Below, piece by piece: positions 43,606-46,311 of a stretch of 64,000 nt of DNA (within the stretch, counting starts at the first letter, position 1; each line of letters begins with the position of its first letter). The position numbers and the translations under genes are program-made. The DNA is from Prochlorococcus sp. AG-679-M23 (GTDB lineage: Bacteria > Cyanobacteriota > Cyanobacteriia > PCC-6307 > Cyanobiaceae), in contig QCUR01000004.1 of assembly GCA_003208875.1 (NCBI GenBank), positions 96,001 to 160,000 on the forward strand, given 5' to 3'. The notes below the pieces were generated by a model. It worked only from the letters and a program-made list of their open reading frames with translations, was not told the DNA's origin and made no database searches.

Positions 43606-45021
43606 TTAGCCTTGAACGTCGAGCTTATCAACGGTATCAAACTCAAACTTGATTTCTTTCCAAGTTTCGAGTGCAATAGCTAATTCAGGACTATGCTTAG
43701 CAGCTTCCATTAGAATGTCTCTACTCTCTTTTTCGATTTCGCGACCTGCATTACGTGCTTTCACACAAGCTTCTAATGCAACACGGTTTGCAGCAGCTCC
43801 GGCAGCTGAACCCCATGGATGACCATGAGTTCCTCCTCCGAATTGAAGACAAGAATCATCTCCAAATATTGCAAGAAGTGCTGGCATATGCCAAACGTGG
43901 ATACCACCAGATGCAACAGCAAAAACTCCAGGCATTGATCCCCAATCTTGATCAAAGAAGTTACCTCTTGATCTATCTTCGGGAACAAATGATTCTCTTA
44001 AGTTATCAATGTAACCAAGAGTAGTTTGACGGTCACCTTCTAGTTTTCCAACAACGGTTCCAGTGTGTAACTGATCTCCTCCAGAGAGTCTTAAACATTT
44101 CGCTAAAACTCTGAAATGGATACCATGCTTTGGATGTCTATCAATAACAGCATGCATAGCTCTGTGTATATGCAAAAGCATGCCATTTTTACGACACCAG
44201 TTTGCAAGGCCAGTATTTGCGGTAAATCCACCAGTTATGTAATCATGCATGATGATTGGCATATCAAGCTCTTTAGCAAACTCTGCACGTTCGTATAATT
44301 CTTCAGGAGTATTAGCGGTGCAATTTAAATAATGACCTTTTACTTCTCCAGTTTCTTGCTGAGCGAGTTTAACGGCCTCAGCAACGAACTCAAATCTTTC
44401 TCTCCAACGTTGGAATGGCTGAGAATTGATATTCTCATCATCTTTAGTTAGATCAAGACCACCTCTTAGGCATTCATAGACAACCCTTCCGTAGTTCTTA
44501 CCAGATAATCCTAATTTAGGTTTAATGGTACAACCAAGAAGCGGTCTTCCATACTTATTAAGTCGGTCTCTTTCAACAACTATTCCGTTAGGTGGTCCAC
44601 CACAGGTCTTAATAAAAGCAATTGGGAATCTAATATCCTCAAGACGGAGATGTCTTAAAGCTTTAAATCCAAATACGTTACCTACTAAAGAGGTTAATAC
44701 GTTTGTAATTGAACCTTCTTCGAAAAGATCTAGAGGGTACGCAATAAATGCATAAAATGCTTCTGGATCACCAGGAACGTCTTCGATTCGATAACAACGG
44801 CCTTTGTAAAATTCAAGGTCGGTAAGTAACTCGGACCAAACAGTTGACCAAGTACCAGTAGAAGATTCAGCCGCTACCGCTGCTGCAACTTCTTCTCTTG
44901 GGACACCTTCTTGGCCTGTGCATTTGAAACAGGCTAACAAATCAGTGTCGAGGGGGACATATTCAGGAGTCCAGTAGGTATCTCTGTACTCCTTTACCCC
45001 AGCGTCATACTTCTTACTCAT
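43606..45021 (-). CDS. rbcL: Rubisco large subunit, form IA
   Basis: [35 protein letters not shown]. Confidence 0.99.
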
Positions 45022-45086
45022 AAGGATAAATTTAGGTCTATTAAGGGAAATTATTTATTAGCAAAATTAGATTTTGCTTTATTTAA

Positions 45087-45398
45087 TTAGTCCTTTTGAC
45101 CAAGGAAATCGCCATTACCAAGTGCTGGCTCAACTTCTCTATGAGGGCGAGCAATGATGTGAGCTGCGACAAGACCGTCACCAACTCTCTCACAAGCATC
45201 AGCTCCAGCTCTTACTGCTGCGTTAACAGCTCCCGTTTCTCCTCTAACTAAAACTGTGACATAACCGCCACCTACGAATTCACGACCAATAAGACGAACT
45301 TCTGCTGCCTTGGTCATTGCGTCTGCTGCTTCGATTGCAGGTACAAGTCCGCGTGTCTCGATCATGCCGAGTGCGATACCCATTGTTTCTGTAGCCAT
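45087..45398 (-). CDS. csoS1: Major carboxysome shell hexamer CsoS1
   Basis: GIALGMIETRGLVPAIEAADAMTKAA BMC domain. Confidence 0.98.
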   Translation of the reverse strand: MATETMGIALGMIETRGLVPAIEAADAMTKAAEVRLIGREFVGGGYVTVLVRGETGAVNAAVRAGADACERVGDGLVAAHIIARPHREVEPALGNGDFLGQKD

Positions 45399-45454
45399 TG
45401 CCTACTAATTACTAAATGTGGAATGTTCAATCCGAAGAATGGTCCATAACGTAC

Positions 45455-45559
45455 TGATAAGTCAAGCATTTTTAACTAAATACTCTATTAATGTTTTTTC
45501 TATCATTGATAAGTTAAACTTATCACCCTTGCTATTATTGATATGTCAATACTTATCAA
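45455..45559. promoter_or_regulatory. Palindromic operator-like sites upstream of the cso operon (LysR/CbbR-like)
   Basis: TGATAAGT-N3-ACTTATCA (45507-45525, contains T-N11-A), TGATATGT-N4-ACTTATCA (45539-45558), half site TGATAAGT (45455-45462). Confidence 0.55.
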
Positions 45560-45615
45560 AATTAGTTAGTGCATCAAAACATACGGTTGTGTTAATAAAA
45601 AATTTACATTAAGTT

Positions 45616-45680
45616 ATGCGCGTACGAGACAGGCCCTGTCTACACAGGTGTGGAATGTTCAACCTCTCCTGTCTCTGTAT
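45616..45680 (+). ncRNA. Candidate structured small RNA or leader sharing 14 nt with the csoS1 leader (strand uncertain)
   Basis: GAGACAGG/CCTGTCTC closing stem, inner CCTGT/ACAGG hairpin, TGTGGAATGTTCAA copy, TACATT -10-like element at 45605-45610. Confidence 0.45.
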
Positions 45681-45723
45681 CAAGTTTTAAAGTAAGATAA
45701 TATTCAGAAATTTTTATATTATT

Positions 45724-46311
45724 TTGGATTCTCCTTCTGTTCTTACTATTGCAAGCGGAAATCAGAAGAAGGTATCTGAAATATTAGAGATGTTAGATGT
45801 CCTATCTTTAAAAGTAAAAAAACAACCCGAATATTTAAATGTTGAAGAGACAGGCAAAACCTATTTTGACAACGCTTTTTTAAAAGCAAAAGCAGCTTCT
45901 TTAGAGACTAAGACTTGGGCCTTAGCTGATGACTCAGGGCTTGAGGTTGATTATTTAGATGGGAGACCGGGCATATATTCGGCAAGATATGCCAACAATA
46001 ATGATGAAAAGCTTATTAAGTTATTAAGAGAGCTAAGTGATATCCCTTACAGAAGCGCAAAATTCATTAGTTGTATGGTTCTATGTGATCCAAAAGGAAA
46101 TTTGGTAAAAGATGCAACGGGTATTTGCTGGGGGGAAATTCTTAAAGAACCAAAATATCCTAACGGAGAATTTGAATCTATTTTTTGGGTTAAAGAGGCT
46201 AATTGTGTTTATGGAGAATTAAGTCATTCTCAATTAATTAAATTAGGCAGTAGAGGAAAAGCCGCAAAAAATATAGCTCCTTTTTTAAAAAAAGAATTTG
46301 GAATAGATTAA
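45724..46311 (+). CDS. Ham1/RdgB-like NTP pyrophosphatase, cso-associated
   Basis: ASGNQKK, VEETGKTY..NA..KA, ADDSGL, GRPGIYSARY. Confidence 0.88.
   Translation: MDSPSVLTIASGNQKKVSEILEMLDVLSLKVKKQPEYLNVEETGKTYFDNAFLKAKAASLETKTWALADDSGLEVDYLDGRPGIYSARYANNNDEKLIKLLRELSDIPYRSAKFISCMVLCDPKGNLVKDATGICWGEILKEPKYPNGEFESIFWVKEANCVYGELSHSQLIKLGSRGKAAKNIAPFLKKEFGID

Follow-up and report, generated by a model that had tools for sequence, protein, structure and literature searches.

A conserved folded leader of the Ham1 mRNA as a candidate pairing partner of the carboxysome-Rubisco message in Prochlorococcus and its relatives

The 64,000-nucleotide stretch of Prochlorococcus sp. AG-679-M23 DNA analyzed in this study (the window; positions 96,001 to 160,000 of contig QCUR01000004.1) contains the carboxysome shell gene csoS1 and, across a spacer of 325 nt, a gene of the Ham1/RdgB family. 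A sequence of 14 nt, TGTGGAATGTTCAA, occurs twice in this spacer, at 45417-45430 and 45649-45662 (plus-strand letters), and the locus raises the question of what the two copies do. A first-pass annotation, made from the sequence without database searches, had noticed the repeat and proposed a small RNA that carries the second copy and pairs with the csoS1 mRNA leader at the first. In the present analysis, the second copy was located in the 5' leader of a Ham1 mRNA isoform and the first copy at the very 5' end of the csoS1 message. Judging from their sequences, the leader and the carboxysome/Rubisco message are able to pair in marine picocyanobacteria, which probably links their expression. The reading preferred here, with somewhat better than even confidence, is that the two 14-mers are halves of an RNA–RNA pair produced from divergent promoters, namely the Ham1 leader and the 5' end of the csoS1-rbcL-rbcS-csoS2 mRNA, and that they act by mutual destabilization.

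Both copies were confirmed to be exact, and no further exact copy was present in the source genome (G000; 1,645,990 bases), where two more sites matched with one mismatch. The distance from the end of copy 1 to the first csoS1 ATG (45398) is 19 nt, as had been annotated. An exact direct repeat of at least 14 nt arose in a spacer of this length in 21 of 20,000 mononucleotide shuffles and in 15 of 20,000 first-order Markov simulations, or about 0.1%. A looser test that allowed up to two mismatches over the whole window was uninformative, with two matches reached in 19 of 100 shuffles.

The two copies were compared among 50 spacers of the genus, which consisted of the 30 best loci and 20 picked to take in the most divergent. 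Copy 2 was invariant in all 50 spacers and the GC-rich patch that surrounds it was nearly unchanged, so that the co-conservation anticipated by the annotation held in full for this copy. For copy 1 it held in part: only the first 12 nt (TGTGGAATGTTC) were invariant, and the final two (AA) differed in 10 of the 50 spacers. The spacing between the copies is 232 bp here and 231-234 bp in four low-light-type Prochlorococcus loci. In the family as compared in this study, which comprises Prochlorococcus, marine Synechococcus, and Cyanobium, the core GTGGAATGTTCAACC (45650-45664) was found as an exact 15-mer in 20 of 31 genomes, as opposed to two of 270 other genomes of the class, a count that would be about the chance expectation.

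The folded leader of the distal Ham1 transcript

Copy 2 lies within a predicted folded element with an outer stem (P1), an inner hairpin (P2), and an internal loop (Table 1). The first-pass annotation had pointed out an inner CCTGT/ACAGG pairing and an outer inverted repeat, GAGACAGG at 45626-45633 with CCTGTCTC at 45668-45675. Both were present and were used in the minimum-energy fold, and the 14-mer remained unpaired in the centroid structure. When the family was searched with the 14-mer, a variant, GGTGGAATGTTCAA, was found once per genome in many genera. Its context was always the same: P1, P2, and an unpaired GUGGAAUGUUCAACC, located upstream of Ham1 and in the Ham1 sense.

RNAalifold yielded no stems on a MAFFT alignment because stems of unequal length were misaligned, and it was replaced by a covariance model, which was built from seven seed sequences and then realigned. 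The model identified the element in 68 of 71 supplied loci, including a match at 45624-45677 of the window (33.1 bits). Exactly one match per genome was obtained in at least 66 of 151 family genomes, where misses do not equal absences given the narrow seed and the 36 candidates scored per genome. Among the 68 model-aligned elements (67 distinct rows), 92.8% of the stem cells were paired, as opposed to 40-58% when the partners were slid, and 13 of the 16 pairs showed changes on both sides. The covariation score was 0.364, against at most 0.079 for slid partners, and none of 500 shuffles reached the observed values. G·U cells of the stems numbered 64 and A·C cells nine, which fits the Ham1-sense (plus) strand. 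By these comparisons of sequence, the element is a small conserved folded RNA with strong stem covariation across the family.

No named family accounted for the element, and the annotation had not recognized one either. Rfam 15, including its Yfr, Cyano-1/2, and riboswitch families, gave no relevant match in positions 44900-46000 of the window with E values up to 10; only a tRNA matched at the gathering score over the whole window, and nothing relevant was found in the loci of six relatives with E values up to 1.

Published start sites in two strains place the element at the head of a Ham1 transcript. For MED4, the tables of Read et al. (2017; PMC5607370) list a csoS1 start at 518681(+), 44 nt upstream of the annotated start, with a value of 90415 in nitrogen-replete cells at 12 h. 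They also list a proximal Ham1 start at 518401(-), 18 nt upstream of PMM0548 (value 148-240), and a distal one at 518485(-), 102 nt upstream (value 216-595); at 12 h the distal start appears for nitrogen-deprived cells only, and at 24 h for both conditions. These sites were carried to the window through genome G015, whose numbering is identical to that of the tables (ATG 518725, TTG 518383). The distal Ham1 start falls on 45623, the first base of P1, and the csoS1 start on the first A of TTG-AACATTCCACA, which in G015 is the A of TTG-AACATTCC (hyphens mark the start).

The second strain is the Synechococcus reference of an independent Red Sea metatranscriptome, in which the ham1 start codon was revised. 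Table S2 of that study gives +716414 as the start of csoS1 (count 133) and -716220 (33) and -716107 (29) as those of ham1 (PMC5069720). In genome G605 (locus L186), where the numbering is again identical, the csoS1 start falls on the G of GAACATTCCACCC and the distal ham1 start, 716220, on the first base of P1. Both strains with data have two Ham1 starts, of which the distal one carries the element and the proximal one is located about 18 nt from the start codon, and the distal site is classed as a Ham1 gene start in both tables (PMC5607370, PMC5069720).

Stranded raw reads were placed on the G015 locus, 699 from run X23 and 1185 from run X24. Their strand was calibrated on known genes, as Ham1 and csoS1 were each covered by reads with the first mate on the opposite strand. 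The Ham1-sense depth was 157-366 from inside Ham1 to the edge of P1 and 1-4 beyond it, and it was sustained past P1, with 157-264 over the element and 189-366 over Ham1. The csoS1-sense depth over the spacer and the element was zero in X23 and 4-8 in X24, compared with about 300 in csoS1, and its rise began at the mapped csoS1 start. Many Ham1-sense molecules ended 10-14 nt inside the mapped distal start, and csoS1-sense reads began 10-12 nt inside theirs. Based on the published start sites and the stranded reads, the element is the 5' leader of the distal Ham1 mRNA isoform; that it forms part of the csoS1 mRNA is ruled out by the start-site tables and the strand-specific depth. In the same runs, the depth of Ham1 mRNA (about 300) was about equal to that of csoS1 (95-310).

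These results revise several details of the first-pass annotation. It had placed the start of a plus-strand RNA near 45616, behind a -10-like TACATT; a start at the foot of the outer stem was confirmed, but at 45623, and the mapped start points to TAAGTT as the -10-like sequence. Its small RNA survives as a conserved plus-strand RNA that carries the motif, in the form of a Ham1 leader with continuous coverage, and no free-standing form was seen in the reads. The other option it offered, a minus-strand decoy or distal leader, is not supported by the near absence of csoS1-sense depth or by the excess of G·U over A·C in the stems.

Complementarity to the 5' end of the csoS1 message

The annotation had named a csoS1 start downstream of copy 1 as an observation that would speak against pairing. 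The start instead maps inside copy 1, at 45427, and according to the MED4 table only AACAUUCCACA of the 14-mer is transcribed as csoS1 mRNA. With the start at this position, the predicted duplex involves the extreme 5' end of the message and spans 14 bp in this clade. The loop is complementary to the message as annotated, and the pairing extends through AGG·UUU, but it counts 14 bp from +1 and not 17. The csoS1 5' end was the best non-self duplex site for the loop in the whole source genome, and it is unstructured according to fold prediction. The second-best site, on contig C1, was rejected as a target since it lies antisense inside a coding gene.

Loop and target were further compared among 40 genomes in which both parts were found, representing 26 distinct combinations. 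Contiguous pairing from the G of GAACA had a median of 14 bp (range 2-16), and the predicted duplex energies ranged from -19 to -33 kcal/mol, except for G196 with -11.5. Past a core of 10 nt, loop and target change together, from G-C to A-U or U-A. For example, position 11 (target:loop) is C:G in 24 genomes, U:G in six, U:A in seven, A:A in two, and C:C in one, and position 12 is C:G in 27, A:U in 10, and U:A, U:G, and A:G in one each. In G167, an A-to-G change in the loop keeps the pairing as G·U. All 13 wobbles are of the target-U·loop-G type, and A·C cells number only three. The flanks paired at a mean of 5.04 of six positions, as opposed to 4.47±0.11 when the loops were permuted, and none of 5000 permutations reached the observed mean. 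The covariation that the annotation had suggested looking for in the stems was thereby found between the two RNAs as well.

The complementarity begins at the mapped csoS1 +1, and the bases upstream vary. In Synechococcus-type genomes, the loop and target sites are about 1.7 kb apart, with sbtA and sbtB between them. A promoter pattern that took its anchors from the -35 box and the start codon of csoS1, and made no use of the motif, recovered this region in 162 of 201 family genomes, leader included. Most of the 162 have ..CGAACATTCCACCCC.. where the mapped start lies and were variable directly upstream of it, and the elements TTGAC and CA(T/A)nnT recurred family-wide at equal distance in the csoS1 promoter listing.

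In several genera, the csoS1 5' end has a quite different sequence, such as GAACCTCCCC, GAACCTCCTCC, GAACTTCCGCC, and GAACATCCAAC. In 20 such loci, a search of 4 kb upstream revealed no compensating variant elements (one clear and one weak match), and a genome-wide search of five such genomes found none either, with a best E value of 0.63 among 150 candidates scored per genome, which does not equal absence. The lack of an element in genera with a different csoS1 5' end (e.g., GAACCTCCCC) fits a coupling of the two parts, as negative evidence only.

Assessed as a base-pairing regulatory RNA, the element has a transcript on the proposed strand, an accessible seed, and conserved, compensated complementarity. 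From its sequence it may be classed as such an RNA, an mRNA leader aimed at the extreme 5' end of another mRNA.

A third near-copy of the 14-mer, with one mismatch, was observed outside the window (G000:C4:189540-189553; L007 1501-1514). In several high-light species the third copy is exact, on the other strand and about 47 kb away. It sits in the spacer between priA and a sigma-factor gene, about 300 nt upstream of the latter, with GGATTG just upstream as at csoS1. It was dropped as a possible second target, as the MED4 tables contain no start site there. Recurrent matches to GGACTGTTCAACC were attributed to chance, since the five examined all lay in unrelated coding sequence that encodes G-L-F-N; a search with one mismatch allowed was too noisy for tabulation.

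Proposed mechanism and competing explanations

In the proposed mechanism, the loop (G)UGGAAUGUUC would first contact the carboxysome message at its unstructured 5' end, GAACAUUCCA, and the duplex would then spread into the 3' strand of P2 to reach 14-16 bp. Double-strand cleavage of both partners would result in a mutual, stoichiometric destabilization. With an active distal Ham1 promoter and little transcription of csoS1, the leader would contribute to clearing the carboxysome-operon mRNA; with the csoS1 mRNA in large excess, the leader-bearing Ham1 isoform would be held down instead. The relative abundances suggest that the csoS1 mRNA may be the effective regulator of this isoform in growing cells.

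We infer from the sequences both that the duplex forms in cells and what its outcome would be. Mutual destabilization is the favored outcome, because csoS1 and Ham1 take opposite values under nitrogen deprivation (-3.04 and +2.96, respectively, in the 24 h tables; PMC5607370) and, at 12 h, the distal start is found among those of nitrogen-deprived cells; this support is correlative. The main alternative outcome would be protection of the csoS1 5' end, and thus stabilization, as with the small RNAs FasX and RoxS.

Several observations weigh against this reading. In nitrogen-replete MED4, the value at the csoS1 start exceeds that of the distal Ham1 start more than 100-fold (90415 versus 216-595), so that the leader would be unable to titrate its target there. 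The core forms an imperfect dyad (GTnGAAnnTTCnAC), a symmetry that would also suit a protein-binding site, and the AACC of the loop is invariant and has no partner in the csoS1 mRNA. The stem counts came from a model-fitted alignment, which favors the figures somewhat, and the set of 40 genomes was confined to those in which both parts could be found and included related, non-independent genomes. Uncompensated mismatches were observed in G123, G159, G287, G128, G258, G193, G216, and G122, two mismatches fall in the core in G196, and the loop is decayed in G140. Additionally, G249, G260, G308, and G315 have a canonical csoS1 5' end, and no element was found within about 350-500 nt upstream of it, which indicates that the target sequence is kept for other reasons too. 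The specific claim that the carboxysome/Rubisco and Ham1 mRNAs interact directly across marine picocyanobacteria, with a leader made only from the distal promoter capturing the first 14-16 nt of the csoS1 message, is put forward tentatively, at slightly less than an even chance.

Among the alternatives, a free-standing small RNA of about 60-70 nt, which would end after P1 and act in trans independently of Ham1, survives best and is nonetheless unlikely. A UUUU follows P1 by 8 nt in this clade, and a 5' stem-loop would stabilize a short RNA. However, the read depth does not fall after P1, and both start-site tables assign the site to Ham1. No excess of short RNA from the element was seen in the X23 and X24 reads, although standard libraries lose RNAs of this size and their absence from the reads is no proof. 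The same limit applies to an RNA 3' end of its own, for which coverage runs through into Ham1 and Synechococcus-type versions have no U-run after P1.

A purely cis-acting leader, which would sense a ligand, a protein, or temperature and control Ham1 only, is slightly less probable again; the likeness to csoS1 would then be functionless. The location in a 5' untranslated region with continuous coverage into Ham1 and the conserved fold would both fit a riboswitch-type leader, and the proximal promoter provides an element-free isoform, as in regulated leaders. The invariant part of the loop, AACC included, also exceeds what pairs with csoS1. However, an expression platform is not evident: Synechococcus-type versions showed no conserved terminator, and the element was not seen to pair with the region around the Ham1 start. 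A complementarity of 14-16 nt to the exact 5' end of a neighboring mRNA, with compensatory changes, is also left unexplained by this model.

A DNA operator repeat, the least probable of these alternatives, would have one regulator bind the Ham1 leader DNA as well as positions -3 to +11 at the csoS1 start and thereby co-regulate the two promoters, with the RNA complementarity a by-product of same-strand copies read in opposite directions. The dyad symmetry of the core, the overlap of copy 1 with a start site, where repressors act, the near-constant spacing of the copies in this and the four low-light-type loci, and the persistence of the csoS1 copy in genomes without a detectable element are all consistent with it. 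RNA–RNA pairing is favored over the operator because the stems around copy 2 covary, transcription starts exactly at the base of P1 in two distant strains, the likeness of the copies ends at the target +1/-1, and the copy differences are one-directional (13 target-U·loop-G versus three A·C), which is not predicted for a DNA site; the distance between the copies in Synechococcus-type genomes also speaks against the operator. The pattern expected of operator repeats, with both copies kept irrespective of transcription and diverging symmetrically, was not found.

Genomic setting, related systems, and significance

The coordinates of the features are collected in Table 1. The genes rbcL, rbcS, and csoS2 lie on the minus strand with csoS1 in the window, and the Ham1 gene diverges from them and is followed by a CsoS1D-like tandem BMC gene. 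The 361 nt from 45380 to 45740, which span the spacer, were matched in 96 of 121 genus genomes, including the source genome, with 84-100% identity, and in 38 of the 41 genus genomes with a completeness of at least 90%. The conservation is unusual over the entire spacer and extends beyond both motifs (84-99% identity in 95 of 120 other genus genomes).

Table 1. Features of the csoS1/Ham1 locus, in window coordinates.
Feature	Positions	Strand	Evidence
csoS1, carboxysome shell protein, first gene of the csoS1-rbcL-rbcS-csoS2 cluster	45087..45398	-	Open reading frame; Pfam BMC, E 1.5e-26
First 15 nt of csoS1 mRNA (AACAUUCCACAUUUA), of which the first 14 match the leader loop as 11 Watson-Crick pairs followed by two G·U and one A-U	45413..45427	-	Predicted duplex, -20.4 kcal/mol
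Copy 1 of the 14-mer, reads TTG-AACATTCCACA, -3 to +11 of the csoS1 transcript	45417..45430	-	Sequence; mapped start
csoS1 core promoter: -35 TTGACT (45460-45465), -10-like CATTCT (45436-45441)	45436..45465	-	Distance to mapped start
Repeated TGATAAGT / ACTTATCA half-sites, outside the RNA pair	45455..45559		Repeat and inverted-repeat families
Distal Ham1 promoter, -10-like TAAGTT	45610..45615	+	7 nt upstream of mapped start
5' leader of the distal Ham1 mRNA; length about 101 nt here and 102 nt according to the MED4 table	45623..45723	+	Start-site tables; stranded reads
Structured element: P1, 45623-45633 with 45668-45679 (bulge 45676); P2, 45635-45639 with 45644-45648; internal loop 45649-45667	45623..45679	+	Minimum-energy/centroid fold; covariance model; covariation
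Copy 2 of the 14-mer, within the internal loop	45649..45662	+	Invariant in 50/50 genus spacers
Proximal Ham1 start, isoform without the element	~45707	+	518401(-), mapped by alignment
Ham1/RdgB-family gene (non-canonical purine NTP pyrophosphatase family)	45724..46311	+	Open reading frame; Pfam Ham1p_like, E 7.5e-44

In Synechococcus-type genomes, sbtA (Sbt_1) and the P-II-like sbtB are located between the element and csoS1, all in the csoS1 orientation, and the element therefore sits directly upstream of the bicarbonate-transporter operon there. No motif-like site was seen near sbtA in these loci. Among the repeated half-sites in the spacer of the source genome is a perfect 19-bp palindrome, TGATAAGTT-A-AACTTATCA (45507-45525), which lies at about -80 to -98 relative to the start of csoS1, and a similar TGATCAG..CTTATCAG is present in Synechococcus-type loci. 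The TGATAAGT/ACTTATCA half-sites are a candidate LysR-type (RbcR/CbbR-like) box.

The small RNAs FasX, which targets ska in Streptococcus pyogenes, and RoxS, which targets yflS in Bacillus subtilis, base-pair with their target mRNAs at the extreme 5' end. As in these systems, the pairing proposed here covers the first nucleotides of the target and not the ribosome-binding site, and its effect would be expected on 5'-end attack and mRNA stability. In contrast to FasX and RoxS, the regulator here is, as far as shown, the Ham1 mRNA leader from a divergent promoter, destabilization is favored, the host is a cyanobacterium, and the target is the carboxysome/Rubisco operon. Leaders and riboswitch elements of mRNAs can also act in trans, of which SreA of Listeria is an example. 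The Ham1 element resembles SreA in that the structured 5' leader of one gene would pair with the mRNA of another, and differs in that a ligand or premature termination is not evident and the partner is a divergently transcribed neighboring operon.

Post-transcriptional RNA control of Rubisco, carboxysome, or inorganic-carbon-responsive genes has precedents in cyanobacteria. In Synechocystis, these include the antisense RNA RblR on rbcL, as well as As1_flv4, and in MED4 a pull-down with Yfr10 enriched csoS1 and csoS2 (PMC6778093). Unlike the Ham1 leader, RblR and As1_flv4 are overlapping antisense RNAs of beta-cyanobacteria, and Yfr10 is a separate small RNA with a Yfr1-type motif; in the portions of these accounts that were available, pairing with the csoS1 +1 region is not reported for any of the three.

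No description of the element was found in the literature covered, to which Voigt et al. (2014), Gierga et al. (2012), and their supplements did not belong and may bear on novelty. The available parts of a 2026 review of the CO2-concentrating mechanism, a carboxysome review, and the Yfr papers do not describe it. In its treatment of regulation, the 2026 review names transcription factors and a few beta-cyanobacterial non-coding RNAs and, in those parts, nothing for the alpha-carboxysome operon. The closest prior notice found is cluster 87 of Axmann et al., a single table row from a comparative screen, in which the sequence upstream of this gene cluster in relatives was flagged as conserved and prone to form structure. 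That row files the sequence as a promoter without follow-up and describes no RNA, strand, fold, or complementarity, and its 336-nt alignment may or may not include the element.

With its clear fold, the element could enter RNA family databases. Prochlorococcus and marine Synechococcus account for a large share of ocean carbon fixation, and we infer that the pair regulates this process. If so, no post-transcriptional regulator of alpha-carboxysome genes would have preceded the leader. Its action may go both ways: abundant csoS1 mRNA would set the Ham1 output in growing cells, and the leader would clear the csoS1 mRNA once carbon fixation is shut down. The pairing would also explain why the puzzling Ham1 gene is retained beside the cso operon, and an RNA partner of the exact csoS1-rbcLS 5' end would show how minimal genomes tune the synthesis of Rubisco and the carboxysome.

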